From a virus (taxonomy: Duplodnaviria > Caudoviricetes): a stretch of DNA of 64,000 nucleotides. How positions within the stretch are numbered: position 1 is the stretch's first letter; the number at the start of each line of letters is the position of its first letter. The stretch is from the IMG/VR virus record IMGVR_UViG_3300044836_000034, positions 1,330 through 65,329 of that record. One strand, 5' to 3'. Made by a program: the position numbers and the translations under genes. The notes under the pieces are model-generated. The model did no database searches, was not told the DNA's origin, and was given only the letters and a program-made list of their open reading frames with translations. Positions 3,679-26,850 of this stretch are shown piece by piece.

Positions 3679-3716
3679 TCCTCTCTCGGGTTGATGACTG
3701 CGCCGGTGGTGCGGCG
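3679..3716 (-). promoter_or_regulatory. Leader element copy A: CACCAC-loop hairpin plus ACCCGAGAGAGGA initiation motif
   Basis: 5-bp stem 3701-3716 with loop 3706-3711; motif 3679-3691. Confidence 0.6.
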
Positions 3717-3743
3717 TGTTGAATCAATTCCTTCAACGTGCTT

Positions 3744-3775
3744 ACCGTCCTATATGTTGGACAGTTTGCCAACAG
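3744..3775 (-). promoter_or_regulatory. Conserved promoter/operator motif, copy 1
   Basis: TACCGTCCTA-N7-GACAGTTTGCCAACAG, near-identical to 6226-6257. Confidence 0.55.
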
Positions 3776-3813
3776 CTAATTCCTCGATTTCGGTAACCCA
3801 TTTCGTACCCTGT

Positions 3814-3850
3814 AAAAGCGACGGGCCGCGCTCCTGAGCGCGGCCCGTCG
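3814..3850 (-). terminator. Intrinsic terminator after the MTase gene
   Basis: About 14-bp GC stem followed by TTTT on the minus strand. Confidence 0.75.
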
Positions 3851-3880
3851 GTCGGGTCAGTCTTGTATGTTACACACGCC

Positions 3881-6160
3881 TTAGAGGGCTATTGCGAGCG
3901 GCTGCTGGCCTTCAGGCGCGACGGAGGCGAGCGCGGCTGCGGAGGCCGCGTCTTCGAGCGGGCGGTCTATGACGACGACGCGAGCGGCCCAGCTCGTCGG
4001 GCGGTCGGAGTTAAGGAACGCGCCTTCAGGAAGCTCGAAGCTCTGGCCGTCGAGCGAGTCGAGCCACGCGCGGAACTCCTGCGCCTTGCCGTCGCCGCGG
4101 TAGAACACGCCCTCGCTCATCAGCGACACGAGGCGGCCGCCGGGCTTGAGCATCGAGAAGGCGTGCATGACGTGATCAATGTCGGTGCCGACGCCGTCGC
4201 AGCCAAACGGCACGTTGGCGATAACGCGGTCGTAGACGCCGGAGTCACGAACGCCGAGAAAGTCTGCTTGCCGGAGGTCTTCGGCCCAACCTTGGGCGCG
4301 CAGGGCTTCACAGAGCATCCCCGACAGTTCGACGAGGCTGAATCGCGTCGACGGATACAGCTCGCGGATTACGTTGCAGATGTGACCGCTGCCGGCGCTC
4401 GGCTCCAAGACGAACATGCCGTCCTCAAGGTCTGCGTACTCAAGCATCAGCTCGACCACGTCTCGTGGCGTCGGGAAGTAATCCGGAGGGAACTCTCCCG
4501 GATAGAGGTCGCGCATGACCTTCTCGGCGCGGCTCATGCCTTCGCGCTCAACCCTGCGGCCCATGTGCTCGCGCAGCGCCGCGCGCAACTCGGGCAGCGT
4601 GTCGAGGTTGTTCAGCCTCATCCTCTTGAAGTCGCCGAGCGCCTCTCGAACGCGGTCGAGCGCCCAACCCTTCACGCGGTGGATCCTCGCGCGGCGGTAG
4701 AAGTGACGCAGCGTGTCGGCGTGCGAGCCGTAGAACACGACCTCGCCGCCGCGCGCCTCGTCGCACATCTTGAGGACGCGGCGGCTGATGAGCTTCGAGC
4801 CGTCGCGCTCGTATATCTGCTTTGCTATCTCGCGCAGCGTGTGAACCGGGACGCACGGCCACGGGTACTCGACGTGCGGGACGCGTCCGTTCGCGGCCGA
4901 GAGGATTCGGTCGAGGGCTTCGGCGTGCGTGCGCCAGCGTATGCGGTCAAGGTGCCGCGCGGTGCGAGCCAGCAGAGCCTCGGCGTGCGCGCGCAGCGTC
5001 CCGGCCATCGCGAGGTCTTCGTGCGCGCCGTCGCGCGCCCGCTCCGCGAGCATGATGCGGCGCTCCGTGTTTTCGAGACGCGGGCGGTGCAGCACGTCGG
5101 AGGCGCGATCCTCCATGCGGCCCGCTAGGGCTTGGAAGTGAACGACGGCGTTCGAGCGGACGCGCTCGCGTCGGCCGATGAGCCTTTCGAGACGGGTCAG
5201 GTCGAACACGTCGCGGCTCTGCAACTGGACGAACTTCTCGGCCTGCTTCTCGTCGAAGAACTGGAAGCCGCCGGGCCTGTCCATCCACGCGCGCGAGTAG
5301 TTGCCGCCGAGCTTGCGCGCGGCCTCGCACAGCTCTATGAACGTTTCCTCGTCCTCGCGCTCGGCCAGCACGACGAGCCAGATGTCGCACTCGTGCTTCG
5401 TGTGGTAAGAGGGGACTATCTCCATATAGTTGCCCTCGCCGATGTCAATGCGCTTGACGGTGGCTTTGGCTACCATCTCACGGCCGCGACGCTCGCGCTG
5501 CTGGTCGGCGCGCAGCTCGTCGTAGCGGGCAAGCTCTTCGTCGGTAAGCTCGCGCTCGCCCGCGCGGCGTATCAGCGCCTCGATGGCGGATGAGTGGCCC
5601 TTGCCCTTGGGGAGAGGCGTGCGGTCGCGTTTGAGGGCGGCGATGCCGCGATGCCGGACGGCCGTCTCGAAGTCTTCGAGCGTGACGGGATTCGTGACCG
5701 CGCGCTGTCGCTCGGCCTCCTCGTCGGCGCGGCGCGCGCGCGCCTCGGCCACGCCGCGCCTGTACTCGTCGAGGTCATCGTCGGTCAGTGCCTCGACGAC
5801 CTTAGCGTTCTTCTCAAGCCTGTAGGCGGCATCCTGAAAGTAGCGCATCCCGACGCCGCCAGCGCGGACTCGGCCGAGAGCAAAGTCTTCGACTATGTCG
5901 TCGAGGACGCGCTGCACCAGCTCGGCCTTCTTCTCGTCGCGCGAGGACATTCCGGCCATGCGCGAGAGCTGAGCCACTTTCAGTTTTGATAATTCGACGG
6001 TGAGCTGTTCGCGGGAAGCGACAACGCGGCGGAACATTACCAAGTGCGCGGCGGCCGTCGTGTCGGGCTGGTGAACGGTCTCGTTGAAATAGGTTCGCAC
6101 GTCCTCGAATGTGACGGGCGGTGTAGCCACGGCTGCGGCTGCTGTTGAATCCTGCTCCAT
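3881..6160 (-). CDS. Large N6-adenine-type DNA methyltransferase with long N-terminal region (ICE/plasmid type)
   Basis: C-terminal DYFPTP, VLEPSAGSG (motif I) and ANVPF (NPPF-like motif IV). Confidence 0.8.
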   Translation of the reverse strand: MEQDSTAAAAVATPPVTFEDVRTYFNETVHQPDTTAAAHLVMFRRVVASREQLTVELSKLKVAQLSRMAGMSSRDEKKAELVQRVLDDIVEDFALGRVRAGGVGMRYFQDAAYRLEKNAKVVEALTDDDLDEYRRGVAEARARRADEEAERQRAVTNPVTLEDFETAVRHRGIAALKRDRTPLPKGKGHSSAIEALIRRAGERELTDEELARYDELRADQQRERRGREMVAKATVKRIDIGEGNYMEIVPSYHTKHECDIWLVVLAEREDEETFIELCEAARKLGGNYSRAWMDRPGGFQFFDEKQAEKFVQLQSRDVFDLTRLERLIGRRERVRSNAVVHFQALAGRMEDRASDVLHRPRLENTERRIMLAERARDGAHEDLAMAGTLRAHAEALLARTARHLDRIRWRTHAEALDRILSAANGRVPHVEYPWPCVPVHTLREIAKQIYERDGSKLISRRVLKMCDEARGGEVVFYGSHADTLRHFYRRARIHRVKGWALDRVREALGDFKRMRLNNLDTLPELRAALREHMGRRVEREGMSRAEKVMRDLYPGEFPPDYFPTPRDVVELMLEYADLEDGMFVLEPSAGSGHICNVIRELYPSTRFSLVELSGMLCEALRAQGWAEDLRQADFLGVRDSGVYDRVIANVPFGCDGVGTDIDHVMHAFSMLKPGGRLVSLMSEGVFYRGDGKAQEFRAWLDSLDGQSFELPEGAFLNSDRPTSWAARVVVIDRPLEDAASAAALASVAPEGQQPLAIAL

Positions 6161-6164
6161 AAGA

Positions 6165-6225
6165 TCCTCTCTCGGGTTTATGACTGGAAAAGCCTGCTAG
6201 TCGGTGGTGCGACTAGCAGGCTTTT
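6165..6225 (-). promoter_or_regulatory. Leader element copy B: terminator-shaped CACCAC-loop hairpin plus ACCCGAGAGAGGA
   Basis: 16-bp stem 6188-6225 with loop 6204-6209, ending in UUUU on the minus strand; motif 6165-6177, ATG 6160. Confidence 0.7.
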
Positions 6226-6257
6226 ACCGTCCTACCTTTGAGACGGTTTGGCAACAG
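6226..6257 (-). promoter_or_regulatory. Conserved promoter/operator motif, copy 2
   Basis: TACCGTCCTA-N7-GACGGTTTGGCAACAG; contains inverted repeat ACCGTC-N10-GACGGT. Confidence 0.55.
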
Positions 6258-6263
6258 TGAATG

Positions 6264-6833
6264 CTAACGCCTTCGGTGGTTGACGTTCGGGCAGAGGCCC
6301 ATCTGCAGCGGACGCCCGCAGATAGAGCAACGGTCGGGTAACATGAGGAAATCTCTCACATCGCGTTTTCTCTCTTCAGCTAACCGCTCCTCAAAGAGTT
6401 GCGTCTCAAAGGTGTCAGGGTCGATGCCTGAGGCCGCACATAGTTTTTTACTAACGAGTTTCTTGACCTCACGGCGCAACTCTTTATCCAGTATGGTTAC
6501 GACAGCCGGCAAGGCACGCAGGTGCTCGACCGTAGCAACCTTCGTGAAGGAGAAGTCATGCCCGTTGAAGCTGGCGACCATCTTAATGACCACGCGCCTG
6601 CTGACGACGAAGATGTCTCCGCGGTAAACATCCTCTTCGCCGATGTCCCCGCGCTCGAAGGCCGTCCGTGAGCCCTGTATCTTCTTTGTCTCTGCCTCGT
6701 AGGCTCGCTCCCACTCGTCAATAAGACCTTCGGCAGTATCAGGCCCTACCCACGTCGCACTATCGGCGACGGCCGTCGCACTATCGGCGACGGCCGTCGC
6801 CTCACGCTCGATCTCTTCCAGCCTTGATGCCAT
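6264..6833 (-). CDS. Hypothetical protein with C-terminal CxxC Zn ribbon
   Basis: 189 aa, CSICGRPLQMGLCP; contains the duplicated peptide ATAVADS. Confidence 0.6.
   Translation of the reverse strand: MASRLEEIEREATAVADSATAVADSATWVGPDTAEGLIDEWERAYEAETKKIQGSRTAFERGDIGEEDVYRGDIFVVSRRVVIKMVASFNGHDFSFTKVATVEHLRALPAVVTILDKELRREVKKLVSKKLCAASGIDPDTFETQLFEERLAEERKRDVRDFLMLPDRCSICGRPLQMGLCPNVNHRRR
6754..6800. repeat. In-frame 21-bp tandem duplication
   Basis: GTCGCACTATCGGCGACGGCC x2 plus a partial copy. Confidence 0.9.
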
Positions 6834-6837
6834 GAGT

Positions 6838-7110
6838 TTATTCCTTCGCGTTGAATAACGATGAAGTAACAGGAGAGGATTTTACCGCCTGCTTAGGCGG
6901 TAGGGAAGAGAACCGCTCGGCCGTCGTGCGCCACACCTTGGCGCAGATCCTTAGCTGAACCATTGTCATCGCAGCCCAAGTCTTACGGTGGCGCTCCTGG
7001 ACGGAGAAGCCTACTCGGCCGAGGACGGCGGCGGCGTCGCGCTCAACCTCAGTTCTCAGTTGCAGGCGCTCGCCGTCGGTCGAGGGAAGTGTATACACGC
7101 GAGATTTCAT
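6838..7110 (-). CDS. Hypothetical protein
   Basis: ATG 7110 overlaps the upstream stop (ATGA). Confidence 0.5.
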   Translation of the reverse strand: MKSRVYTLPSTDGERLQLRTEVERDAAAVLGRVGFSVQERHRKTWAAMTMVQLRICAKVWRTTAERFSSLPPKQAVKSSPVTSSLFNAKE

Positions 7111-7505
7111 TGAGTGGTCTCTATCAGCTCCATAAGCTCTTCGACGAAGGCCTCCGGGACCTGAACGCACGTGCGCGGCTGCTTGGGCCATCCCCATTCT
7201 GGAATCGCCGCGAGTATAGTCTCCCGATGCACGTACGCATCGAGCAGCCGAATCTCGTTAATGTCGGCGCAGTAACTGCCGCTGAACTCGTGGCCGGGCT
7301 CGTCTATCAGCTCGGGCGTCGAGGCGATGCGCGCCACGGCGATGAGGGCCGAGATCGGGGCCTTGCAGTAGAGCAGGAGGCGGTCGCCCTTGCGCGGGTT
7401 GCTGTTCCTGCCGAGCGTCCAGTTCGACTCGCCCTCGCCCGCGTCCTCTTCCAAGCTGGCGAGATAATCTTCGCTCGTGACTGTGATAAAGGTTCTTCGT
7501 TGCAC
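7107..7505 (-). CDS. EVE-domain (PUA-like) protein
   Basis: NWTLG...KGDRLLLY...ALIAVARI pattern of EVE domains. Confidence 0.65.
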   Translation of the reverse strand: MQRRTFITVTSEDYLASLEEDAGEGESNWTLGRNSNPRKGDRLLLYCKAPISALIAVARIASTPELIDEPGHEFSGSYCADINEIRLLDAYVHRETILAAIPEWGWPKQPRTCVQVPEAFVEELMELIETTQ

Positions 7506-7512
7506 GCTGCTC

Positions 7513-8196
7513 TCATCCTCCCGCGGCCGAGCGCTTATAGCTCGCGCGGACGGCTTCGAGTACTCCCGGCCGAGATTCCAGCCTCCATAGCTTCTGGCCG
7601 CCCTTGCACTTCACAGGCTCGACGAGCTTCACGAAGTCCGTTAGCACCCAACCGTACGGCCCGAAAAACCACGGGCGCTGCCCCGGCTTCAGATACTTGT
7701 CGTCGGCCCTCTCGACGTGCCCCTCGACGCGGCAGACGGCGAAGATTTCCGAGTGCGGCATCTCCGACCTGTCGGGTACGTAGAGTCCTGTCCTGTCGGC
7801 TATCCACTCGCGGTCATCCTCCGAATACCCTTGCGCGGCGTGGAGCGCGAGGTAGCACTCGACCATGAACAGGGACGGCGGCCAAGAGCGGTTCTCTATG
7901 CGTTTCGGGGCGACGCGCGAAGTCAGCGGCGAAACAGTGAAGGCGAAGGGCCACGGCCGCGTGAGACTCAATACTCTAATGATCATCTTCGGTTTACACT
8001 TCTCGCACCTGGTGCGCCTCGGTAACTTAGGCAGCCTGCACCCGTCGCGTATGACCGGCGCCGTCTCGTGGCCGCAGCTCAGTCGGTGGACGACGGTGCG
8101 CAGCGAGACGCTGAAGTCGCCGTCCTCAATCTTGTGCGGCGGGCCGGCGACGGTCTCTACTATCTCGCGTAGCGGCCCCTTACTCCCCACAGTCAT
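7513..8196 (-). CDS. ASCH-domain protein with N-terminal Zn-binding extension
   Basis: LSLTRPW...KRIENRSW...LALHAA signature; WFFGPYGWVL. Confidence 0.8.
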   Translation of the reverse strand: MTVGSKGPLREIVETVAGPPHKIEDGDFSVSLRTVVHRLSCGHETAPVIRDGCRLPKLPRRTRCEKCKPKMIIRVLSLTRPWPFAFTVSPLTSRVAPKRIENRSWPPSLFMVECYLALHAAQGYSEDDREWIADRTGLYVPDRSEMPHSEIFAVCRVEGHVERADDKYLKPGQRPWFFGPYGWVLTDFVKLVEPVKCKGGQKLWRLESRPGVLEAVRASYKRSAAGG

Positions 8197-8212
8197 CTGC
8201 TAACCCCTAGAG

Positions 8213-8641
8213 TCAAGCGGCGTATGGCAAACTTAATTGTCTCGGCCGAGACTTCAACTCCGCACGCGCCTTGGTAAGGTTCTCCTGACCCTTTCGCCGG
8301 CACTCGTTGCGCCACATGATGAGCCCGAGCGCCAGTTGAATCTTCGAGCCCGACTTCCATATTTTCGCCATCGAGGCCATGCCCTTCAGTTCTTTCTTGA
8401 AGTAAGCCTCCGCGAGACGTTCGGCCACCTCTCGCACGTCCGGCCCGTCGAAGTCGGCCAGTAGCTGCCGCAGGCTCCCGAGAGAGAGCAGCCGGTCTAC
8501 ACACTCGGCCTTCGTGCCGCTGACCGGGATACCTAACAACTCCGCGAGGGCGCGCAGCTCCGCGGCGCTGAGACTCTTCAAATCGTCGCGCTTCCACTCG
8601 CCGGGCGGCGTGCTCATAAGGCGGCGGAAGGTTTCTCTCAT
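8213..8641 (-). CDS. SAP-motif DNA-binding protein
   Basis: LKSLSAAELRALAELLGIPVSGTKAECVDRLL matches the SAP consensus. Confidence 0.65.
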   Translation of the reverse strand: MRETFRRLMSTPPGEWKRDDLKSLSAAELRALAELLGIPVSGTKAECVDRLLSLGSLRQLLADFDGPDVREVAERLAEAYFKKELKGMASMAKIWKSGSKIQLALGLIMWRNECRRKGQENLTKARAELKSRPRQLSLPYAA

Positions 8642-10673: not shown

Positions 10674-13160
10674 TCAAGCCGTCCGCCTTTCCTCTTCCTC
10701 TTGTCTGCGAGCGCTCAGGCGCTTTGCGGCGCGCTGGTACGGCCGCGGTTGCAACTTGGGCTCGATGAATAGACCCTCGTTGTAGACCTGGACCCGAATC
10801 TCGAACGACGACCTGCGGCCCTCGCGGCCGGCGCGGCGTTGCTCGGCTCTGATGTGCTCACACCTCTTCTGGCCTTCGGTCGTGAGGCCGAAGCGGGTCG
10901 GGTATGCGGGGCCGAACTTCTTCAGCAGTCCCTCGGCCTCGGCGACGCTGACCTCGACGCCCTTGCCGGCGAGCCGCCGACGGATGGCGAGCGCGTCGCG
11001 GTGCCGCTCGATGTAGCGCGCGGAACTCGCCCGGCTCCGCTCCTTATAGTCGGGCCTGTCCTTCCAGTAACTCTTATCCTTATCGGCGTTCCGCGCGCGC
11101 CAGCGGCGCAGATACTCTTTCTTATACTCACGCCTGTGGCCGCGCTCCTTCGCGTTGTGACACTCCTTACAGCGCGGGCGTAGACGGTACTCCCCGTCCT
11201 TACGTGAGCGGACGACGACCATCGCGGCGAGCGGCTTTATCTCGCCGCAGACGTTGCAGCCGTATTTCTTCGGAAGCTCTTCAAGCGTCGCGGCCCGCGT
11301 CAGGACGGTGGCCGCGAACCTGCCCTTCGTACGAAGAGAGGTCTTCGAAGCCTTCTTACGCGCGGCGCTCGCGCGCTCCTTCTGGAGACAGCCGCACGAG
11401 CGCGTGAGGCCCTGCTTCATCGCTTTGCCCGAGACGGTCTTCTCCTTCCCGCAGTCGCAGACCACAAACCATTGAAAGTCTTTGTTCCTGACGTGGCTCG
11501 GGCCTAAGACTTTCAACCTGCCGAAGCGGCGACCAGTGAGGTTCACGAACTTGCGCGCGTTGCGCCCCTGCCACGCCTCAGTCCACGCGCAGCCGCAGGA
11601 CTCCGTGTTGCCCTGCGTCAGATAGCTCGTGCGAACGACCGTCTGCTCCCCGCACGAGCAGTTACAGAGCCACTGCCGATAGCCGCGCGGGGAACTCTCG
11701 ACCTGGCGGACAACTTTGAGCCGCCCGAACGTGAGCCCGGTCAGGTCTTTCAGTCTCCCGCGTCGGCCGAGGTGCATGACGGCGGGAGGCTTGGCCTTCT
11801 TCGCGCGTGGCTTACGCACGCGCGTCAGGTGATCGAGCGGGACGTGATAAATGATGCGCCGGTACTCAGGTCGGCCGTGCGGCTTGACCTTTGGCAACTC
11901 GACGCGGGCCATCCAGCACGGCGGACGCGCCGGAGACTTCTGCGTCGCCGGCATAGACCGCGACGACCAATAGATTGATTTCACCTCGCCCTTACGCTCA
12001 CGAGCGCCGGGCGTCTTGAACTTCCAACCCTTGTCTATCATTACCCAGTGGCCGACCTCGAGCTTCTTATTCTTCTCAGGTCGAGGGCCGGGCAGGGGGG
12101 CGGGAGTGCGCTTACCGTAGGCGGCGGCGACGCGGCCCGCGTAGAACTCATGCTCCGGCCGCGCGCGGTGGTAGGCGTAGCGACGCCAGTCGTAACCCAA
12201 CAGCGCGTAGCAAAGGCGCAGCGCGAGGCTCTTGCGGACGGCCTCGTCCAGCTCCTTCGGGTGTCGCTTCTTCTTCCAGTTGTACTCCTCGACGACGAGC
12301 AGATCGGCCGGGTCGATGTAGATGCATTTATGGCTGCGATAGTAGGGCAGACGGCCGTGCGCCATGTACTTCCGAAAGGTCTCGCCGCTGATGCCCGTCA
12401 CGCGCTCCGCGTGGTTGATCGTCCAGCCCCAACGGCTGTAACTGTTCACGCCTAAGTCGTAGAGTCGCCGTTTGATCGCCGCGTCGGTGCGGCCGCATCC
12501 CGACTCACTCATCAGGCGAACGACCTCGTCGCGCGGGAGGATGCCGACAGACTCCGTGATGAACCAATCCTCGATTGGCCGCCAAGGCATGTCTGTCATG
12601 TCGGTGTGTATGCCGAGTTCGGGGTGCGCGTGGCGAACGTCGAGCCAGAAGTCGCGCATCCCTCTCCAGCGACCGAAGCGCCGTATCGTGTCGAAACCCG
12701 GGTACAGGCCGACTTTGCCCGGCAGCGACTCGTTGCGGTAGCCCTTGATCGCCTCCTGCCACCAGTTCGCGCTCGTGGGCGCCGCGCCGAACCTGCGGAA
12801 GAAGTCCGCGCCGGCCTCTATCATCCGGTCGCGCGTCCAGAGCGAGTGTCGGCCGCTGCGGTGAACGCGCTCGATCGGGATGAGGCCGAGCTCGTGCCAC
12901 GCGTGAGTCATCGAGGCGAAGAAGCGCGACACCTGACTGCCCGGAGGAAAGCGCCGGCGCGCCCCCATCTTATTTGCGTCGTGCGGGCGAACGTCCGCCT
13001 CGTAAGCGTGCAGGTCGCGCGGCAGCCGCTCCGGCTTCTCGCCGTACAGCTCCCTGACGGCGCGGCGCAGGCCGCTCACGACGCGCTCGCGCGTCCACCA
13101 TTGAGGCTTGGGAGGCCCGCGCCTAACTACGCGCGGCCTTGTCTTCATTCTGCGCATCAA
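10674..13160 (-). CDS. 828-aa mosaic DNA-binding protein
   Basis: WTRE/WTRD endonuclease-associated repeats, HTH, two DLTGxxFGRL...CxCG...SCGC units, a CxxC...CxxC finger; no HNH catalytic motif seen. Confidence 0.65.
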   Translation of the reverse strand: MMRRMKTRPRVVRRGPPKPQWWTRERVVSGLRRAVRELYGEKPERLPRDLHAYEADVRPHDANKMGARRRFPPGSQVSRFFASMTHAWHELGLIPIERVHRSGRHSLWTRDRMIEAGADFFRRFGAAPTSANWWQEAIKGYRNESLPGKVGLYPGFDTIRRFGRWRGMRDFWLDVRHAHPELGIHTDMTDMPWRPIEDWFITESVGILPRDEVVRLMSESGCGRTDAAIKRRLYDLGVNSYSRWGWTINHAERVTGISGETFRKYMAHGRLPYYRSHKCIYIDPADLLVVEEYNWKKKRHPKELDEAVRKSLALRLCYALLGYDWRRYAYHRARPEHEFYAGRVAAAYGKRTPAPLPGPRPEKNKKLEVGHWVMIDKGWKFKTPGARERKGEVKSIYWSSRSMPATQKSPARPPCWMARVELPKVKPHGRPEYRRIIYHVPLDHLTRVRKPRAKKAKPPAVMHLGRRGRLKDLTGLTFGRLKVVRQVESSPRGYRQWLCNCSCGEQTVVRTSYLTQGNTESCGCAWTEAWQGRNARKFVNLTGRRFGRLKVLGPSHVRNKDFQWFVVCDCGKEKTVSGKAMKQGLTRSCGCLQKERASAARKKASKTSLRTKGRFAATVLTRAATLEELPKKYGCNVCGEIKPLAAMVVVRSRKDGEYRLRPRCKECHNAKERGHRREYKKEYLRRWRARNADKDKSYWKDRPDYKERSRASSARYIERHRDALAIRRRLAGKGVEVSVAEAEGLLKKFGPAYPTRFGLTTEGQKRCEHIRAEQRRAGREGRRSSFEIRVQVYNEGLFIEPKLQPRPYQRAAKRLSARRQEEEERRTA

Positions 13161-16372: not shown

Positions 16373-16424
16373 CGCGTCTCAATTTCCTTTCTCGGGTAGA
16401 TGAAAGACTCGTATATTTTCCGTG

Positions 16425-18946: not shown

Positions 18947-19312
18947 TCAAGCTGCGTTCCTCCTGCCGAGTCGGTCGGCCTCGTAGTCCTTCTCGGCGAT
19001 GCGAAGCTCCCGGCGCAGCTCGTCCTCTTCGATTTGGAGCTTGCTCTTCTCGTCGCCGATGCCGTCGAGTTCCTGCTGCGTCGAGAGGTAGTCAGGGTCT
19101 TCGGTGAGCGAGAACTTGTATGCGGCCTCGCGGGTCTTGTCGTTCGTGTTCGCCTTGTCGTTGTAGGCGGCCAGCTTCAGGGTGCTGTCGAGCCTTGAGA
19201 GGCGGCGCGTGAGAGGCCTCTCCTCAATCGTCAACTCGCGCAGCCTTGCGGCTATCTCCGCGCGGCGCTGACGTAGCCAGTGAACGGAGCGCGTGCCCTC
19301 TGTTGAAATCAT
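18947..19312 (-). CDS. Coiled-coil hypothetical protein
   Basis: Heptad-rich 121 aa. Confidence 0.6.
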   Translation of the reverse strand: MISTEGTRSVHWLRQRRAEIAARLRELTIEERPLTRRLSRLDSTLKLAAYNDKANTNDKTREAAYKFSLTEDPDYLSTQQELDGIGDEKSKLQIEEDELRRELRIAEKDYEADRLGRRNAA

Positions 19313-19464
19313 TTCTTAGCTCTCTTCTCTGCCCTCTTCTTCGAGGACTTCTTGTGTTTCGGACAAAGGCCGATTTCAAGGTCGGCGTCTGCGGGGTCGG
19401 TGCAGCGGTATGTTTTGAGGCACACGGAGCAAACGTGCTCGTGCGCCTCCCCCTCGGTCGGCAT
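19309..19464 (-). CDS. 51-aa Zn-finger peptide (absent from the ORF track)
   Basis: MPTEGEAHEHVCSVCLKTYRC...LCPKHKK; AGAAAGGA RBS; ATGA overlap with the next gene. Confidence 0.65.
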   Translation of the reverse strand: MPTEGEAHEHVCSVCLKTYRCTDPADADLEIGLCPKHKKSSKKRAEKRAKK

Positions 19465-19473: not shown

Positions 19474-19542
19474 TCCTTTCTCGGGTCATAGCGTTGAAGA
19501 GTGAGGCCCGCGCCGCGGTGGTGGTGCACCGCGGCGCGGGCC
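19474..19542 (-). promoter_or_regulatory. Leader element copy C: CACCAC-loop hairpin plus ACCCGAGAAAGGA
   Basis: 16-bp stem 19505-19542 with loop 19521-19526; motif 19474-19486. Confidence 0.7.
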
Positions 19543-19550
19543 TGTCGGAG

Positions 19551-20339
19551 TTACGACTGAGGCTGCTCCTGCTCCTGCGGCTGCTGCGCCGCCTGCTGCT
19601 TGTTGGCGAGCTTCTTCAGGCCGTTGGCGGCGAAGTAGCAGAGGCCGACGCCGTCCACGTGCTCCTTGCGGAAGATGCCGAGCTTCGCCATCTCACCGGC
19701 GATGCGCTGCGGGTAGATGCCGCCGAGGCCCTTGCGCGAGATGGGCTCGTCTACGGTCGCGTTCATCACGCTGACGACCACCTCGACGACGCGCGCGCCG
19801 TTCATGCGCTCGATGGTCTGCTCTTGGAACTTGGCGAGGTACGCGAGCAGCTCGGGGGACGAGCCCTTGACGGAAGCGCCGCCAGCCTCGCGCGGCTGCT
19901 TGGGCTCTTTGGGGGCCTTCATGGCGCGAGCGGCCTTCTTCGACGAGGACTTCGACGCGCCGGAGTCGGCGGCGGCGGCGCTCTTCTTCGAGCCGCGCTT
20001 CGTGGCGGAGGGCTTATCAATGGGCGCGCCAACGGGCTTGCCCGACTTCTTCGACTTGTCGGTCATTTCAATTTCCTCTCGGGTGACGAATTTGTTGACT
20101 ACTCGGGCGGCATCCAACGCCGCCAAAAATGTGCCGCGAGTCTGGCAAGCGGCTAAGGTGATGAGTTCTTCGCGGGTGAAGAAACTCGGGGCGAAGGCGC
20201 GACGCGGGTTAGTAACTCTGTACTTCCCTGCTCCGGTCGTCGGGCCGGGCACGTAGAGAACGTCGTAGCCTTTGGCCTCGACGGTGGCGACGGCCGAGGC
20301 AAATTCGCTCGGCAGCTTCTGAGCAACGGGCGCGCTCAC
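19551..20339 (-). CDS. Hypothetical protein, K/S-rich linker; probable internal start at ATG 20066
   Basis: ACCCGAGAGGA RBS in frame before 20066. Confidence 0.55.
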   Translation of the reverse strand: MSAPVAQKLPSEFASAVATVEAKGYDVLYVPGPTTGAGKYRVTNPRRAFAPSFFTREELITLAACQTRGTFLAALDAARVVNKFVTREEIEMTDKSKKSGKPVGAPIDKPSATKRGSKKSAAAADSGASKSSSKKAARAMKAPKEPKQPREAGGASVKGSSPELLAYLAKFQEQTIERMNGARVVEVVVSVMNATVDEPISRKGLGGIYPQRIAGEMAKLGIFRKEHVDGVGLCYFAANGLKKLANKQQAAQQPQEQEQPQS

Positions 20340-20960: not shown

Positions 20961-20964
20961 CAGC

Positions 20965-21002: not shown

Positions 21003-21886
21003 GGTCGGTCATGGTAATGGCATCCGACCGCGTTGAGCCGTTTTCGATTTCACCCAATCCCCTTTTCCTCTTCCACACAGACAACGTGAAGGCGCTACTT
21101 CACTCGGCCCGCTCGACCGTTAACAAGCGGCAGGGTCTTGTGACGATCCTCTCGCCGGTCGGCTGCGGGAAGACGACGCTGCTGCGCCACCTGTGGATGG
21201 AGTTCGACACGCGCGGCGACACTCTCACCTGCTTCATCCCGACGCCGATCTTCGCTTCGACGTTCGCGATGGTTAAATCAGTCGCGGCCGGCTTCAAGCA
21301 GTCGCGCGACGGCATCGAGGGCGAGGCCGCAGTGAAGCGCGACAGGGACCCGCTCGACCCGCAGCGCTCCCTGCGCGCGCAACTCGACGGGCTCGAGGAG
21401 TTCCTGGCCGAACAGTACCAAGCGGGGCGCAACGTCTGCCTGCTCATAGATGAGGGCCAGATACTGAAAGACCAGTACTTGGAGCTGCTTCGCTCATTCC
21501 TCAACTTCGAAAGCAACGAGGCCAAGACTATCCAGCTCGTCATCGCCGGCCAGTTGGAGATGTGGGAGCGGTTTAAGACTAAGAAGAACGAACCCCTGCG
21601 GTCGCGCGTCCACTCGTACGCGCTGATAAACCCGCTCACAGACGTGGAGACTGAGAAGATGATCGCCTTCAGGTGCGCGAAGGCCGAGGTCGCAAACCCC
21701 TTCCCTCCCGACGTGGTCGAGCGGATATACGAACTCACCAAGGGCGTGCCGCGCCACATCATCAAGGTCTGCGGCAAGGCGATGGAGTACATGGAGATGG
21801 AAGGCGCGGCCGAGGTCACGCGCGATATGGTAGACGGCGCGGCCGAGGACGCGGCGCTCGAAGTAGAGACTGAGGCTGCCGCATGA
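20993..21886 (+). CDS. ExeA-like (AAA_22) ATPase
   Basis: Walker A SPVGCGKT, Walker B LLIDEGQ, IAGQLE, LRSRV, TKGVPR. Confidence 0.85.
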   Translation: MLYGSVMVMASDRVEPFSISPNPLFLFHTDNVKALLHSARSTVNKRQGLVTILSPVGCGKTTLLRHLWMEFDTRGDTLTCFIPTPIFASTFAMVKSVAAGFKQSRDGIEGEAAVKRDRDPLDPQRSLRAQLDGLEEFLAEQYQAGRNVCLLIDEGQILKDQYLELLRSFLNFESNEAKTIQLVIAGQLEMWERFKTKKNEPLRSRVHSYALINPLTDVETEKMIAFRCAKAEVANPFPPDVVERIYELTKGVPRHIIKVCGKAMEYMEMEGAAEVTRDMVDGAAEDAALEVETEAAA

Positions 21887-22965
21887 GCAGACACTTACGC
21901 AATATCCTGAACAAGCAGCCAGGCGAGTCCGACGCGCAGACTACTCCCTCTAGTCCCTCTAGCCCCTCTACAGACTCTACAGGGGCTAGAGGAGCTACAC
22001 CCTCTACAGGCTCTAGCCCCTCTACAGGGGGTAGCCCCTCTAGTGCAAATGTGCAGGAACCGCGCACCCGCAGGCCGACGTCGCCGCGGCGCGGTTTCAC
22101 GAAGGTCACGAACTCCGTCGTCAAGGTCGCCGTGCCAGCAGGGCTGTTCGGCGCGCAGGGCGGCAAGGCGAAGGAGCTATACGACGCGCTGTGGCAGATG
22201 ACGCGCGGCGCCGTCGTCCCGAGACGGAAAGTACGCATCCCGAAAGACCAGTTGATGAAGGCCGCCGGAATCGGGTCGGAGATCACGCTGAAGAAGAACC
22301 TGCGACTGCTGCGAACGAACGGGCTCGTCGCGGAGACGCTCTTTCCGGGCACGCACGGCGGCAACGAGTATGAAGTCTTCGAGCCGGAGGAGATCGGACC
22401 CTCTACCGGGGCTACCCCCTCTAGCCCCTCTACCGGCCCTAGCTCCCGTCAGAATGTAGAGGGAGTAGAGGGAGTAGATGCTACAGCCTCTAGCCCCAGT
22501 TTAAATAGCAGCGTTAATGAGACTTCCATGTCAGGCCAGACTTCTCTTTTAAGACCCTTTTCCGGAACTGATGATGATGAGGCTTTCGCCGGGTTTGTCG
22601 AAACAATCAGGCGAGCGGCGCTCGATGTGACGGGCAGAGAACCGACGGCGGAAGAGGCGTCGCGGTGGAGTGAACTCGCCGAACTGCTGGCGACCGAGTT
22701 GAAGATCGCCGCCGGTCGCACGACCGTGTCGAGCGTGCCCGCGTTCCTGACGGAACATTTACGCAGACGCCTTTGGAAGAAAGAGAAGCGGCAGGTCGAG
22801 GCCGAGGCGGGCGTGAGAAGTGAAGGGCGGACGCCGAAGGTGGACGCCTCGCAGTGCCCTGACTGTTTCGGAACGGGGATGTATTATCCGGAAGGATTCG
22901 AGAAGGGAGTCGCGAGGTGCGACCATAAAAAGCTCATCGCGGGCGAGACGCCCCACGATTCTTGA
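21883..22965 (+). CDS. Plasmid-type replication initiator-like protein (wHTH plus C-terminal Zn motif)
   Basis: FTKVTNS...QLMKAAGIGSEITLKKNLRLL; internal DNA repeat arrays; C-terminus CPDCFGTGMYYPEGFEKGVARCDH. Confidence 0.6.
   Translation: MSRHLRNILNKQPGESDAQTTPSSPSSPSTDSTGARGATPSTGSSPSTGGSPSSANVQEPRTRRPTSPRRGFTKVTNSVVKVAVPAGLFGAQGGKAKELYDALWQMTRGAVVPRRKVRIPKDQLMKAAGIGSEITLKKNLRLLRTNGLVAETLFPGTHGGNEYEVFEPEEIGPSTGATPSSPSTGPSSRQNVEGVEGVDATASSPSLNSSVNETSMSGQTSLLRPFSGTDDDEAFAGFVETIRRAALDVTGREPTAEEASRWSELAELLATELKIAAGRTTVSSVPAFLTEHLRRRLWKKEKRQVEAEAGVRSEGRTPKVDASQCPDCFGTGMYYPEGFEKGVARCDHKKLIAGETPHDS
21946..22042. repeat. Iteron-like array 1 (CCCTCTA x6)
   Basis: Copies at 21946, 21955, 21964, 22000, 22018, 22036, all offsets multiples of 9 bp. 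Confidence 0.75.
22399..22472. repeat. Iteron-like array 2 (CCCTCTA x3, inverted TAGAGGG x2)
   Basis: Copies at 22399, 22417, 22426; inverted at 22457, 22466; TTTAAATA follows at about 22500. Confidence 0.75.
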
Positions 22966-23017
22966 CAGACCTCTGCGGCTCGCGTAGTCTCACAACTCTG
23001 ACGCTCCCCGCGGCACT

Positions 23018-23239
23018 TCACTTGCTACTTTTTTTCTTTGTCGGGACGTGAACGAGAATGTCGCCAGCCGGGCATTCCAACGCCTCGCAGATAGCATCTA
23101 AGACCCCAAAATCAATGGAGGTGCGTTTACTTTTCACGATGGCGTACAGGGTACTCAGCGCAACATTCGTCTGACGGTTGAGCCAGTAGACACTTTTCCC
23201 CCTCTCGTCGAGCACTTCTTTAAGGCGTACTTGAATCAT
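23018..23239 (-). CDS. XRE/Cro-C1 (HTH_26-like) regulator
   Basis: MIQVRLKEVLDERGKSVYWL...IDFGVLDAICEALECPAGDIL. Confidence 0.9.
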   Translation of the reverse strand: MIQVRLKEVLDERGKSVYWLNRQTNVALSTLYAIVKSKRTSIDFGVLDAICEALECPAGDILVHVPTKKKSSK

Positions 23240-23283
23240 TCCGTATATATACCACACGCGTTATTCGCTTTGAAGTAACACGT

Positions 23284-23317
23284 GTTGACTATATAGCGCG
23301 TTAACTGTATAGTCAAC
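23284..23317. promoter_or_regulatory. Symmetric overlapping bidirectional sigma70 promoter
   Basis: TTGACT-N17-TATAGT on both strands within the IR GTTGACTATA-N14-TATAGTCAAC. Confidence 0.8.
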
Positions 23318-23319
23318 GC

Positions 23320-23558
23320 GCGGTGCCGGACGGTTAGAACGCTTTTCCAGTTGCGTAGAATTAAATGCCCGTATTAGGATGCCCGAGCCTTACATAAGCC
23401 TTTGCCGATGCCCGAATCTGCAATCCCTGACAGGCGTATGTAAGGCTGCCCGTCCCTACCCAGACAGGGACACACGTCCAGTAGGTCGCCGACCGCCTCA
23501 GGGGTTCGCGACTGTTCCGCGTGAATTAGAAGGGAACTAGCGCGCCTCGCGTTAGTTC
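23320..23558 (+). ncRNA. Candidate structured sRNA (alternatively a 53-aa ORF 23379..23540)
   Basis: Downstream of a strong promoter; 11-bp IR AGCCTTACATA/TATGTAAGGCT; 4x TGCCCG; terminal hairpin 23534-23558. Confidence 0.35.
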
Positions 23559-23785
23559 AAGGGAGACGACAGCCAGACGCCAACCTCGACCAGCGCCGCG
23601 GTGATTGCCGCGAGCAGGCCGCCGTCGTTCGTCTGTGTGTTCGTGGGACTCGGCTCCTCAATCGGCGTCGGCGTCGGCGCTGGGGCCGGTGGCGTGTCAA
23701 TGATGCCGGCGTGAGAGGTGACAGTGATGACCGCGCACAGGCATGCGGCACACAGAGCAGAGAGATATCGGTTCGGTTTTCTCAT
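23552..23785 (-). CDS. Small secreted pro-peptide
   Basis: Sec signal ending TSHA/GIIDTP, Pro-rich linker, hydrophobic C-terminal helix. Confidence 0.7.
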   Translation of the reverse strand: MRKPNRYLSALCAACLCAVITVTSHAGIIDTPPAPAPTPTPIEEPSPTNTQTNDGGLLAAITAALVEVGVWLSSPLN

Positions 23786-23854
23786 TGTTTCGATTCGTTG
23801 CCTCCGTACAGGTTAGGGCGAGCTGATGAGGTCAGCGCGGGAGAGAATACAATT

Positions 23855-23874
23855 ATTGCAACCGCGGGTGCAAT
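23855..23874. promoter_or_regulatory. Inverted repeat between the peptide and TPR-regulator genes
   Basis: ATTGCA-N8-TGCAAT. Confidence 0.45.
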
Positions 23875-23903
23875 CCTGAGTTAAGCGGAGTCGTAACAGA
23901 CAA

Positions 23904-25754
23904 ATGAAGCGAACACAATCAACGCTCATCGCGGCGTGCGCCGGCGCACGCGACCTTGAGGCTGAAGGCAGGTTCAGTGAGGCGCGCGAAGCGCTCTCCG
24001 CTTTCTGGCTTGGATTGGGACACGACCCGCTGCTCGACGGCCTCGTCGACGCCGAGCGCGCGGAGCTGCTGCTGCGCGTCGGGAAGTTGACGGGCGTGCT
24101 CGGCGCGGCCGAAAGGATGGCGGGAGCGCAGGAGCTTGCAAAGGATTTGCTCGGCCGGGCCGCGAGGCTCTTCGAGTCATTGGGTGACGACGACGGCGCG
24201 GCCGAGGCGCAGACCGCAACTGCGCTCGCGTATTGGCGCGAGGGGGCCATGCCGGAAGCGGCGGCGATCCTCGACACGGTGCTCGACGCGCGAGGCCGTC
24301 TCGCCCGTCGCGTCGCGCTCGAAGCCATGCTCGTCCGCGCAACGCTTCTAAGGTGGGAAGGGCGTTACTACGACGCGTGCGACATGCTCGGAGAGGCGCG
24401 CACTCTGCTCGCCGAGCACGACCCGGCGCGCCTGCACGGGAGCTACTACAGCGCGCTCGGGACGGCCTACTTCTTCATGGCCGTCGCGACCGGACAGCGG
24501 TCTCTGCTGGAGCGGGCTGAGAACGAGTACATCGCCGCGAGCGTCTACTACTCCGACGCCGGCCACGAAGCCTACCGCGCGAGCGTAGAGAACAACCTCG
24601 CGTACATCTACATGCTGCTCGGCAACCTGGCCGCCGCGCACTCTCACCTCGACGTCGCGGCCGAGGCGCTGCGCAAGACCGGCAGCGCGCGCGAGGCGGC
24701 GCAGTCGAACGAGACCCGTGCTCGCGTCTTCATCGCGGCGGGCGACCTCGCCGCGGCTGAAGCGTCCGCTTCGGCCGCCGTGGAAAGTTTGTCGCGCGGC
24801 GACGCTTCGGCACTCCTCGCCGAAGCGCTCACGACGCGCGGCGTAGCGCGCGCGCGCCTCGGCCTATTGTCGGAGGCGCGCGCCGACCTCAACCTGGCGG
24901 GCGAGGTCGCGTCGAGGGTGGGCGACGGCGCTGGCGCGGGGAGGGCGCGTCTGGCTCTGTTCGAGGAGCTGCGCGCCTTCCTCACGCTCGAAGAGGCGCA
25001 GGAGGCTTACGACGAGGCCGCGAGGCTACTCGACGGGGTGCAGGACGCCTCCATCGCTAAACGGCTGCGTGAAGCGGCGCGCGGGCTGTACGCGATGACA
25101 CGCGAGCAGCTCTCCGCCTTGGAGTCTGCCGCATATACTTGGAGTGGGTTCTCGTTTGAAGCCGCCGTGCACAACTTCAAAAAGCTGTGGATCGAGCGGG
25201 CGCTGCGGGACGCCGGCGGCATCGTGTCGAAGGCGGCGCGTCTGCTCAAGATGGCGAACCATCAGAGCCTCTTCAAAATGCTTATCGAGGGCGAGTTCAA
25301 ATCGCTGCGGCACTTACAGAAGCAGAAAAAGCAAAAGTCCAGACTCACGGTGAAGGGAAGGAGCAAACAGTCACGCAGGTCGGCGCGGGCCGTGCGCGCG
25401 CCACAGGCCCGCGCATGTTGCAGCCCGGCCGCGGTGGCGTTCAAGCGGCTGAAGCTCAAGACCGGCGATGACACCCTAGCCGCACGCGGGCCGCGTGGAG
25501 GTGACAGCCTGATCGTTGACGTGCGCGCGCAGGCTGCTGACGGCGACTTAGTCGTCGTCGTACACCTCGACCTCAGCTATTACGGCTACCTGCGGACGGA
25601 GGGCGGCACCATCTTTCTCGACTACCCCGGCACACATCGGGAGCCTGAGGACTTCTCAAAGAAAACGCCCGGCGACGTGCACGTCGCCGGGCCGGTTGTC
25701 GCGTACGCGTCTAAAGACGACCCGCGCCGGATACGTCAGCTCCTACCTCTCTAA
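23904..25754 (+). CDS. TPR-repeat transcriptional regulator with Fis-type HTH and C-terminal S24-like domain
   Basis: TPR-like helices with NNLAYIY, SALGTAY; IERALRDAGGIVSKAARLL (Fis HTH); GDSLIVD...GDLVVV. Confidence 0.75.
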   Translation: MKRTQSTLIAACAGARDLEAEGRFSEAREALSAFWLGLGHDPLLDGLVDAERAELLLRVGKLTGVLGAAERMAGAQELAKDLLGRAARLFESLGDDDGAAEAQTATALAYWREGAMPEAAAILDTVLDARGRLARRVALEAMLVRATLLRWEGRYYDACDMLGEARTLLAEHDPARLHGSYYSALGTAYFFMAVATGQRSLLERAENEYIAASVYYSDAGHEAYRASVENNLAYIYMLLGNLAAAHSHLDVAAEALRKTGSAREAAQSNETRARVFIAAGDLAAAEASASAAVESLSRGDASALLAEALTTRGVARARLGLLSEARADLNLAGEVASRVGDGAGAGRARLALFEELRAFLTLEEAQEAYDEAARLLDGVQDASIAKRLREAARGLYAMTREQLSALESAAYTWSGFSFEAAVHNFKKLWIERALRDAGGIVSKAARLLKMANHQSLFKMLIEGEFKSLRHLQKQKKQKSRLTVKGRSKQSRRSARAVRAPQARACCSPAAVAFKRLKLKTGDDTLAARGPRGGDSLIVDVRAQAADGDLVVVVHLDLSYYGYLRTEGGTIFLDYPGTHREPEDFSKKTPGDVHVAGPVVAYASKDDPRRIRQLLPL

Positions 25755-26260
25755 CCTTCTTCACTATCCTGAGAGCCTGTCGGGGGGCGGCGTCCACGCC
25801 GCCCCTTCGGCTTTTCGAGCTCGCCTTGGTCAAGCAGCAGCTCCGAGAGAATGCGCAGGCGCGCGCGCCCGCGTTCGTCCAGACTGCCCAGTCGAGACAT
25901 CATCTCGGAGGCCCGCCCCGATAGTCCTTCGTCTACCAGCTTCTTCAGCAAAGCGTCCACGGCGATGCCGTCCTCGGAGGCTATCGACCTCAACACGCTC
26001 GCGTGCTCCTCGCCTAAGAAGTTGAGCGGGTCTTCGGAAGCGCCCTTGCCGGTAATCAGCCAATCGAGGGAGCAGCCCGTCACCTCCGAGACCCGAATCA
26101 TCTTGTCCATCTCCGGCCAGTACTTACCGGCCAGAATGTCGGTCACGGAAGACCACTGCTTATACCCGAGAATGTCTTTAATCTCGGTGTTGCTGCGCTC
26201 GCCGAACGCCTTACGCAGGCGTGCGGGAAAACCTTCATCTGGAATAGGCTTCGGTGACAC
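25751..26260 (-). CDS. cI: CI-like repressor (XRE HTH); start uncertain
   Basis: FPARLRKAF...IRVSEVTGCSLDWLITGKG; divergent from the cro-like gene. Confidence 0.75.
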   Translation of the reverse strand: MSPKPIPDEGFPARLRKAFGERSNTEIKDILGYKQWSSVTDILAGKYWPEMDKMIRVSEVTGCSLDWLITGKGASEDPLNFLGEEHASVLRSIASEDGIAVDALLKKLVDEGLSGRASEMMSRLGSLDERGRARLRILSELLLDQGELEKPKGRRGRRPPTGSQDSEEG

Positions 26261-26272
26261 CGTAGTTTTCGC

Positions 26273-26301
26273 TTGACTTGACTTCGGCAGTGCCGTAGTA
26301 T
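26273..26301 (+). promoter_or_regulatory. P_R-like promoter for cro and the lytic replication operon
   Basis: TTGACT-N17-TAGTAT; overlaps GTGCCGTAGTA, which also occurs at 20595. Confidence 0.7.
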
Positions 26302-26339
26302 CGTGGGCGCAATAAGCGTTGCGCTTTGCAGGATAAGCC

Positions 26340-26564
26340 ATGACCGACCCCGAAATCAAACAGTTCAAAAAAGATTTGCTGCTGACGACGCTTCGGCTGA
26401 GCGTCACGGCCTTATCCGAGGCGACTGGCGAGCCGCGCGACGCTGTCTCCTGCGTCGTGAACGATATCCGTCCTCGCAATAAGACGCGCGTGAAGGTAGC
26501 CGACGAGATAGCGAAGCAGGTCTACGAACTCTTCGACGTTGACCCGCCCGCACGCAAGGTATAA
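26340..26564 (+). CDS. cro: Cro-like small HTH protein
   Basis: LSVTALSEATGEPRDAVSCVVN; position opposite cI. Confidence 0.65.
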   Translation: MTDPEIKQFKKDLLLTTLRLSVTALSEATGEPRDAVSCVVNDIRPRNKTRVKVADEIAKQVYELFDVDPPARKV

Positions 26565-26573
26565 CGCGCGACG

Positions 26574-26602
26574 AATATATAGTCATGGCGATTGATAGTC
26601 AA
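26574..26602 (-). promoter_or_regulatory. P_RE-like leftward promoter downstream of cro
   Basis: Minus-strand TTGACT-N17-TATATT pointing through cro toward cI. Confidence 0.6.
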
Positions 26603-26638
26603 GACAATTCGGGCTTGAGGCGGCCTCAGAAATGGAGC

Positions 26639-26686
26639 GGCCCGCGCGGGCACCACCCCGCGCGGGCCAAAGTCCCGAGAAAGGAC
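26639..26686 (+). promoter_or_regulatory. Leader element copy D: CACCAC-loop hairpin plus CCCGAGAAAGGA
   Basis: 12-bp stem 26639-26668 with loop 26651-26656; precedes the 9-codon ORF 26693..26722 (MTALKYESR). Confidence 0.7.
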
Positions 26687-26795
26687 TTCGCCATGACGGC
26701 CCTCAAATATGAGAGCCGATAAGGCTACGCAAAAGTTAGCACGGCGGGCGCGCCGCCCGCAACCGACCTCTCCCGCGCTCTATTACGCGGCCCGA

Positions 26796-26850
26796 CCGGG
26801 CACCACACCGGACGATAAAGCCGCAGCAGTAACTCCGACCCGAGGAAGGG
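26796..26850 (+). promoter_or_regulatory. Leader element copy E (degenerate)
   Basis: CCGG-G-CACCAC-A-CCGG then ACCCGAGGAAGGGA before GTG 26864. Confidence 0.45.

Follow-up and report, generated by a model that had tools for sequence, protein, structure and literature searches.

Five hairpins with one loop in the gene leaders of a soil phage genome

The window analysed here is a stretch of 64,000 nucleotides that makes up all but 1.3 kb of the 65,329-bp single-contig virus record IMGVR_UViG_3300044836_000034 (Caudoviricetes), and it carries, in the leaders of five genes, hairpins that share the loop CACCAC. Its GC content is 63%, no tRNAs were detected, and the sole sequencing run in which its DNA was found is a soil metagenome. 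The genes for tail, capsid and terminase proteins lie on the + strand from about 27 kb on, and a leftward block running from 20.6 to 2.5 kb holds accessory and plasmid-like genes, among them those for two ParB-like proteins, a DUF5131 protein, a 759-residue methylase-like protein and an 828-residue HNH-like protein. Between 20.6 and 27.4 kb is a regulatory region encoding an AAA_22 ATPase, a TPR/helix-turn-helix (HTH) protein, a CI-like HTH protein and a 74-residue cro-like protein; sigma-70-like promoters are enriched in it (7 vs 1.1 expected).

The five hairpins are real. A sequence-only reading of the window had placed them on the transcribed strand, on stems that differ from copy to copy, and all five were found where it had put them, with measured stems of 5, 16, 16–17, 12 and 4 bp. 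Hairpin A (3701–3716, − strand) has a 5-bp stem (cgccg/cggcg) and a CACCAC hexaloop and lies in the leader of a gene for a 71-residue protein (3455–3670), with a second hairpin of 6 bp directly 5′ of it. Hairpin B (6188–6225, −), directly upstream of the methylase-like gene (3881–6160), carries the same hexaloop on a 16-bp stem preceded by an A-tract and followed by UUUU. In hairpin C (19504–19543, −) the hexaloop is on a GC stem of 16–17 bp that begins 8 nt past the stop codon of a gene for a 262-residue protein and is upstream of the gene (19309–19464) for a 51-residue protein with a putative zinc site and a basic tail. On the other strand, hairpin D (26639–26668, +), a 12-bp GC stem with the same hexaloop and no U-tract, is located 75 nt past the stop of the cro-like gene and is followed by a 9-codon open reading frame (ORF; 26693–26722), while hairpin E (26796–26811, +) exposes an 8-nt loop, gCACCACa, on a 4-bp stem (ccgg/ccgg) upstream of the gene for a 169-residue SWIM-type protein (26864–27373). 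The closing pair is G-C in hairpins A to D.

The word CACCAC itself is not over-represented in the window (18 copies vs about 20 expected). Its placement on stems, on the other hand, is commoner than chance would give, since 5 of the 18 copies are on a stem of 4 bp or longer, while the background for the whole genome is 2.3% (binomial P = 4.5e-5). When all hexamers were ranked by their occurrence as loops on such stems, only the self-complementary CCGCGG came above CACCAC. This per-hexamer test replaced a shuffle statistic, the highest number of hairpins with one and the same loop on a stem of 4 bp or more, which gave no discrimination. Three of the six hexaloop hairpins in the window with a stem of at least 12 bp have the CACCAC loop, and the loops of the other strong hairpins are unrelated to it.

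Copy B had also been described as terminator-shaped, and it has indeed a stem flanked by A- and U-tracts. It is the only one of the five with that shape, its U-tract is just UUUU, and a U-tract is missing from hairpins A, C, D and E. The U-rich tail is longer in the ortholog of B in the relative L004 (see below) than in B, the 5-of-8 T rule is reached by neither, and a consensus terminator scan listed none of the five hairpins. Searching the whole window against Rfam 15 gave no match at the gathering score, and at E ≤ 1 only chance hits of 14–27 bits (gathering scores 38–100) appeared, in line with the earlier statement that no described motif fits.

Each hairpin is followed by ACCCGAGARAGGA and a start codon, as had been claimed, at a measured spacing of 5–27 nt, which is narrower than the 5–32 nt given before. 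The core of this start motif, CCCGAGRRAGG, occurs exactly six times in the window (0.21 expected; six were reached in 0 of 100 shuffles), always on the coding strand and 4–13 nt before a start codon, and in five of the six cases 5–27 nt past a CACCAC hairpin. It reads ACCCGAGAGAGGA in the units of hairpin A (3679–3691, −; 8 nt before the ATG at 3670) and hairpin B (6165–6177, −; 4 nt before the ATG at 6160), ACCCGAGAAAGGA in that of hairpin C (19474–19486, −; before the ATG at 19464), tCCCGAGAAAGGA in that of hairpin D (26673–26685, +; before the ATG at 26693 of the 9-codon ORF) and ACCCGAGGAAGGG in that of hairpin E (26838–26850, +; 13 nt before the GTG at 26864). The sixth copy, again ACCCGAGAAAGGA (16385–16397, −), precedes the gene for a 628-residue ParB-like protein and has no CACCAC hairpin. 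Two copies of this hairpin-less kind had been proposed; the one just described is exact, while the other, near 20073, is only a variant, CCCGAGAGGAAA, inside the 262-residue ORF at an invariant internal methionine.

Loop types at orthologous sites in related phages

Relatives of the window were reached through protein homologs and the contigs encoding them. A single NCBI metagenome contig of 65.7 kb supplied two parts, L004 and L024; it is syntenic with the window in the early genes and in the genes for tail and baseplate. L025, a 24.9-kb Logan contig, is related to the window more closely across the regulatory region. C862, a contig of 20.5 kb from a Pyrinomonadaceae metagenome-assembled genome (MAG), has a homolog of the 262-residue protein gene, the methylase and tail genes, and G011:C336 is a 4.4-kb contig from another Pyrinomonadaceae genome. 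The loops were thus compared in five genomes (window, L004/L024, L025, C862 and G011:C336), those of the relatives being partly sampled.

Other searches added no carriers. Close relatives were not found in the phage, plasmid or IMG/VR collections: megablast of 20 kb against the phage collection gave no match, searches of viral_contigs, phages and plasmids with the 759-, 326- and 262-residue proteins gave nothing usable, and composite pattern scans of viral_contigs gave chance matches or none. A metagenome scan returned only the L004 record again. L003 has three genes in common with the window and no hairpin element, and the element was likewise not found at the loci that share only the methylase (L005–L013). 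L001 and L002 were rejected as relatives, as CACCAC is not a loop there and they have no genes in common with the window.

Hairpins are present at the same intergenic positions in the four relatives, with a loop that is uniform within a genome and differs between genomes: CACCAC five times in the window, CACUAC four times in L004/L024, and CGCUAC three times in L025 and once each in C862 and G011. The 14 canonical hairpins (5 CACCAC, 4 CACUAC and 5 CGCUAC; consensus CRCYAC) are all on the coding strand between genes, a short way ahead of a ribosome site. The loop types partition perfectly by genome, which is expected in 6 of 252,252 arrangements (P = 2.4e-5).

At site A, L004 (11347) has the same 5-bp stem as the window with the loop CACUAC, and an extra hairpin of 13–14 bp just before it (L004 11316) also has the loop CACUAC. 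At site B, upstream of the methylase homolog, L004 (8623) has the loop CACUAC on a stem whose outer part is kept and whose inner part is rebuilt, with one U-G pair, and C862/L026 (829) has the loop CGCUAC on an unrelated stem of 16–17 bp. The stem at site C of L025 (8128) is identical to that of the window and its loop is CGCUAC; different stems of 12 bp and 12–13 bp carry the loops acCACUAC in L024 (7535) and aCGCUAC in G011:C336 (4265), respectively. In L025, site D (1148, −) has the loop CGCUAC and site E (1022, −) an 8-bp stem with one U-G pair and a loop laid out as in the window, gCGCUACa.

The orthology of the sites is based on the identical C stem in the window and L025, on the A stem and the outer B stem that the window has in common with L004, and on the same flanking genes. 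Within one genome, stems at different sites are unrelated, and the loop changes therefore took place in parallel at separate sites. Judged from these comparisons, neither duplication nor gene conversion accounts for such parallel changes, while selection to match a putative partner specific to each genome would.

To look at the folding, 13 hairpin copies were aligned and used for a covariance model. All 8 aligned stem pairs vary on both sides. Paired cells make up 80.8% of the alignment, compared with 48.9% in shuffles (0 of 500 as high) and 33–50% when the 3′ partner columns were slid, and the covariation score is 0.67 vs 0.17. CRCYAC is on the coding strand in 14 of 14 copies, and the U-G pairs in the L004-B and L025-E stems exist on the sense strand only, being C-A mismatches on the other; both observations support folding of the sense-strand RNA. 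The earlier proposal that the hairpins form a recognition site at the RNA level, be it nut-like, protein-binding or a kissing loop, is thus supported in its core by the orthologous positions, the conserved loop architecture, the compensatory changes in the stems, the genome-specific loops and the sense-strand folding.

Twelve of the 13 copies score 22–29 bits with the covariance model. The remaining one, L024-C, scores 17.3 bits, its 8-nt loop being out of register in the alignment. Scanning 429 kb, which included the window, about 150 kb of sequence from the putative host MAG and unrelated phage loci with the methylase alone in common, revealed nothing other than hairpin copies above 20.4 bits. 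In a 165-kb sample of the host MAG, none of 10 strong hexaloop hairpins had a CRCYAC loop. Taken together, the scan and the survey of host hairpins indicate that the element is specific to the phage family and is not a general terminator loop of the host.

The start motif travels with the hairpins and behaves differently from the loop. Its core is found in the relatives as CCGAGARAGG(A), in L004 (B′ and A2′), L024 (C′), L025 (D″, E″ and F″) and C862 (B); it is divergent at C″ of L025 (uuuAGAGAGAGGA), and only AAAGGA is left in G011. The hairpin-less copy before the ParB-like gene is kept in L025 as CCCGAGAGAGGA, before the ParB gene of that contig. The motif occurs also without hairpins and stays constant while the loop changes between genomes, and in the host sample we found no general use of CCGAGRRAGG as a ribosome site. 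It behaves like a family-specific extended Shine-Dalgarno leader that would stand outside the specificity code. The common 16S tail UCCUUUCU would pair with AGAAAGGA, and the A/G alternation would keep a pair with U; as the 16S of the putative host MAG comes without its 3′ end, this pairing rests on general knowledge. A mini-hairpin within the start motif was ruled out, with only 2–3 bp available. Several late genes of the window (e.g. those starting at 1704, 33199, 43632 and 47437) share a ribosome-site context, (C)CGAGGAG, that coincides in part with CCGAG, the core of the early start motif.

As for the host, the contigs of two relatives were binned into Pyrinomonadaceae MAGs (L026/L027 as G002:C862 and L050/L051 as G011:C336), and the named homologs of the AAA ATPase of the window come from Pyrinomonadaceae (Acidobacteriota). 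Thus, the host is probably a Pyrinomonadaceae acidobacterium. The 262-residue marker is present in only 2 of 301 sampled Pyrinomonadaceae genomes. The carriers of the element would then be a family of uncultured soil phages or phage-plasmids, probably hosted by Pyrinomonadaceae.

Transcription units and small proteins around the hairpins

The rightward unit begins with a sigma-70-like promoter (26273–26301), followed by the cro-like gene, hairpin D, the 9-codon ORF, hairpin E and the SWIM-type gene. Past the latter there are two hairpins, the second of which is a terminator candidate (27393–27421, +; a strong 10-bp hairpin and then UUUGUG) downstream of D and E, and then a RepO-like replication gene. 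In outline, the placement of D and E resembles the nutR/tR1 arrangement. In the leftward unit, hairpin C comes after the first two genes, a placement that recalls nutL, and B and A lie 13–16 kb further down.

A second sigma-70-like promoter (26574–26602, −), directed at the CI-like ORF, faces the one at 26273–26301 (+) across the cro-like gene at a distance of about 270 bp, a face-to-face layout reminiscent of the P2/186 switch. The 9-codon ORF (26693–26722, +) between D and E encodes MTALKYESR behind a full start motif; a leader peptide is one possible role, a ribosome-site decoy another.

Between the units of B and A, past the methylase gene, is another terminator candidate (3819–3850, −), a 14-bp hairpin followed by CUUUUAC with a loop, CAGG, that is unrelated to CACCAC. 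Its tip reads gcgcUCAGGAgcgc, which can be folded as a 13-bp stem with a UCAGGA loop or as 14 bp closing a CAGG tetraloop, and the apex displays an A(N)GGA like those that CsrA/RsmA-type proteins bind.

Upstream of hairpins A and B we identified a conserved element with the 31-nt consensus TTGSCAAACYGTCY-N8-(A)GGACGGTAA. The copy before A (3742–3772, −) reads TTGGCAAACTGTCC-N8-GGACGGTAA and has a U-G in its inverted repeat, the second copy (6224–6254, −), TTGCCAAACCGTC...GGACGGTAA, abuts hairpin B, and in L004 (about 8575–8606) the element is found nearly letter for letter upstream of B′. It can be written as TTGSCA-17 nt-GACGGT, in which the −10 is poor, with ACYGTCC/GGACGGT as an internal inverted repeat. 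One possibility is a weak promoter that depends on a factor or activator; an operator or a further leader hairpin are others. If it is a promoter, hairpins A and B would be at the 5′ end of their transcripts.

Two proteins encoded next to hairpin C were considered as possible readers of the loop. The leading candidate, on account of its position and composition, is the 51-residue protein encoded right behind the hairpin (19309–19464, −), which has conserved histidines and cysteines (HEHVC...C...GLCPKH) and a Lys/Arg tail, and whose gene follows hairpin C in four of the five genomes (window, L024, L025 and G011). A C-terminal Cys/His motif, CS[VI]C ... GLCP..H, with basic residues is common to this protein and to the end of a 189-residue protein (6264–6833, −) whose gene is just upstream of hairpin B, and a 360-residue protein (21883–22965, +) has a similar Cys-rich end. 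The other candidate, a weak lead, is the 262-residue protein (19551–20339, −), in which a Lys/Ser/Ala-rich linker connects two conserved domains and which could combine a basic linker with a winged helix. An atlas look-up of the 51-residue protein and of the C-terminal domain of the 262-residue protein returned unnamed clusters and only weak winged-helix leads. In all four homologs of the 262-residue ORF there is a ribosome site before an invariant internal methionine (ATG at 20066 in the window); this points to a second, nested product of 171 residues.

A response regulator with REC and ANTAR domains was also tried as the reader and was rejected, as the protein encoded at 33199–33684 is a bare REC domain with no further domain and no ANTAR tail. 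Mimicry of a tRNA 3′ end (ACCA) was ruled out by the loops of the relatives, which are without CCA.

Elsewhere in the leftward block, the 828-residue protein (10674–13160, −) gave HNH-endonuclease-like PHROG matches and no Pfam match. It and the adjoining 321-residue ParB-like protein are 74–79% identical to counterparts on a viral contig of 93 kb that is otherwise unrelated (L003, 10001–12424), which indicates a mobile two-gene module.

Readings of the hairpins and their meaning

We lean towards the reading that the hairpins are an undescribed leader-RNA element, restricted to this phage family, whose loop is read by a lineage-specific trans-acting factor; the existence of the factor, its protein nature and its action are what we infer. 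Each copy would fold in the nascent sense transcript and display the hexaloop CRCYAC, usually closed by a G-C pair, the sequence and length of the stem being irrelevant to recognition. A factor with lineage-dependent specificity would read the loop, with positions 2 and 4 setting that specificity, and it would most likely be a small phage protein, for which the 51-residue His/Cys protein is the candidate. By binding where each early or accessory unit begins, it would control the genes that follow. The effect that we rank first is loading of an antiterminator in the manner of boxB/N, by which RNA polymerase would pass the many strong hairpins of the operons; control of translation at the adjoining strong ribosome site ranks second, and a marking site for RNA processing or stabilisation third.

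We also entertain, as a doubtful extension, that the CRCYAC hairpins are address labels in a new regulatory code of phages. In it, loop positions 2 and 4 would be recognised by a novel small RNA-binding protein that binds zinc and has no relation to N, Q, Com or ANTAR. By antitermination or translational activation this protein would permit expression of a scattered early and accessory regulon, and the loop/protein pairs would form mutually insulated specificity groups among the phage-plasmids of Acidobacteria.

Several observations weigh against a dedicated protein reader. No RNA-binding or antiterminator domain was found, and the profiles of ANTAR (PF03861) and of the Com zinc ribbon (PF10122) gave nothing in six frames at E ≤ 1. 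The 51-residue protein has no Pfam, PHROG or PDB profile match, and its AlphaFold model is poor (predicted local distance difference test score, pLDDT, of 64). Sequences resembling boxA (YGCUCUUUA-like, with at most one mismatch) number 22 vs 19 expected, and none is in the leaders at 3.6–3.8, 6.1–6.3, 19.4–19.6 or 26.5–26.9 kb. Lambda has two nut sites, both promoter-proximal, whereas there are five sites here and each directly precedes a gene. Structure switching is unlikely, because stems of 12–17 GC pairs fold unaided. Both variable loop positions are transitions (A/G and C/U), which would be tolerable also to a pairing RNA partner. Finally, only five genomes were compared, three of them with the same loop type (CGCUAC), and site C of C862 is the one exception to the pattern, with the non-canonical loop GACACACG.

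Such an RNA partner is the basis of an alternative that we hold to be unlikely, in which the loops are the targets of a trans-acting antisense RNA acting by kissing, of the type of the P1/P7 C4 RNA or the P4 CI RNA, that exposes GUGGUG (GUAGUG or GUAGCG in the relatives). The concerted change of several targets in each genome is what RNA-RNA specificity gives, and in P1/P7 immI heteroimmunity the targets change in concert with the regulator RNA. Moreover, with transitions at both variable positions, one GUGGUG partner could pair with all three loops by means of G-U pairs. On the other hand, GTGGTG and its 6-mer neighbours are present in the non-coding gaps of the window only as the antisense of the five hairpins, and none of the other 13 GTGGTG copies in the window is in a hairpin loop. 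No orthologous site co-varying from GTGGTG to GTAGYG was found in the L004, L024 and L025 loci, no promoter that would transcribe a hairpin in antisense was found, and six base pairs alone are short for a kissing complex.

It is less probable still that the hairpins are ordinary structures with no dedicated partner (intrinsic or I-shaped terminators, or stabilisers of 5′ or 3′ mRNA ends) and that CRCYAC is simply a favourable hexaloop. Hairpin B and its L004 ortholog do have a classical stem and U-tract, B, C and D are very stable GC stems right after stop codons, and A and B would be at the very 5′ end of the transcript if TTGSCA-17-GACGGT is a promoter. However, uniformity within genomes together with difference between them is unexpected if any CRCYAC loop works, the stems of A and E are only 4–5 bp, and the missing U-tracts of C, D and E, the negative terminator scan and the unrelated loops of the other strong hairpins, in the window as in the host sample, all speak against it. 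The least probable of the alternatives, and a very unlikely one, is an element acting at the DNA level, where an extruded or single-stranded hairpin is bound by a protein, be it as an N4-type hairpin promoter, as a roadblock like a stoperator, or as a site at which the two ParB-like proteins act in replication or partition. The sites are scattered in intergenic regions and oriented with transcription, as the stoperators of mycobacteriophages are, and the genome encodes, besides the two ParB-like proteins, several HTH proteins. Yet the conserved part is only 6 nt long and falls in the would-be single-stranded portion, the U-G pairs are mismatches on the other DNA strand, and the distance from hairpin to start motif, 5–27 nt, shows no fixed promoter geometry. 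The profile of single-subunit RNA polymerases (PF00940) gave no match, although its control matched nowhere either; the largest ORF has 1023 residues.

Among known systems, the hairpins are most readily set beside the nut sites of lambdoid phages. There, boxB is read by the arginine-rich motif of N, with a separate boxB/N pair in each of lambda, P22 and phi21. The likeness lies in a small hairpin of the nascent early transcript with its specificity in the loop, in copies that occur in both divergent early units, after the first gene or genes and ahead of terminators, in their identity within a phage and difference between relatives, and in a small basic protein encoded behind one copy. In contrast to boxB, with its GNRA-like pentaloop (GAAAA or GAAGA type), the loop here is CRCYAC in 6–8 nt, the stems range from 4 to 17 bp and differ among the copies of one phage, there is no boxA nearby, the five copies stand each before a ribosome site, no N-like protein was recognisable, and the host is probably an acidobacterium. 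With the P1/P7 C4 and P4 CI RNAs the element has in common several short targets ahead of ribosome sites, which change with the regulator between heteroimmune relatives; unlike there, no complementary RNA was found in the window and the targets are 6-nt hairpin loops.

Mu Com/mom is similar in that a small zinc-binding phage protein (here the candidate) goes with a leader hairpin just ahead of the ribosome site of a gene for DNA modification; here hairpin B stands before the methylase-like gene in three genomes. It differs in that no match to the Com zinc ribbon was found here, that the element precedes five different genes and that the small protein is a candidate binder only. The targets of ANTAR proteins (EutV, AmiR and NasR; PMC8934654) are alike in having a hexaloop that is read irrespective of the stem sequence, in leaders adjoining terminators. 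In ANTAR loops position 1 is A and position 4 is G, and the hairpins occur as spaced pairs overlapping the terminator (PMC8934654), whereas in all 14 copies of our element position 1 is C and position 4 is C or U, and no ANTAR domain was found in six frames. Overall, the element resembles boxB/N or C4-type targets by analogy, yet it fails the defining features of both, as well as those of ANTAR and Com.

The concerted change of the loop would be a clear natural example of a regulator co-evolving with multiple targets. Should the reader prove to be a new RNA-binding regulator, the small number of phage systems known for antitermination and translation control would gain a family, and the orthogonal hairpin/protein pairs could, if they exist, serve as tools, as lambda N-boxB and MS2 do. 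Gene regulation in the phages of Acidobacteria, a dominant and barely cultured soil phylum, is essentially unknown, and the element offers a compact, testable handle on it: its code is 6 nt long and occurs in three natural alleles, the sites are orthologous, and the candidate readers are few.

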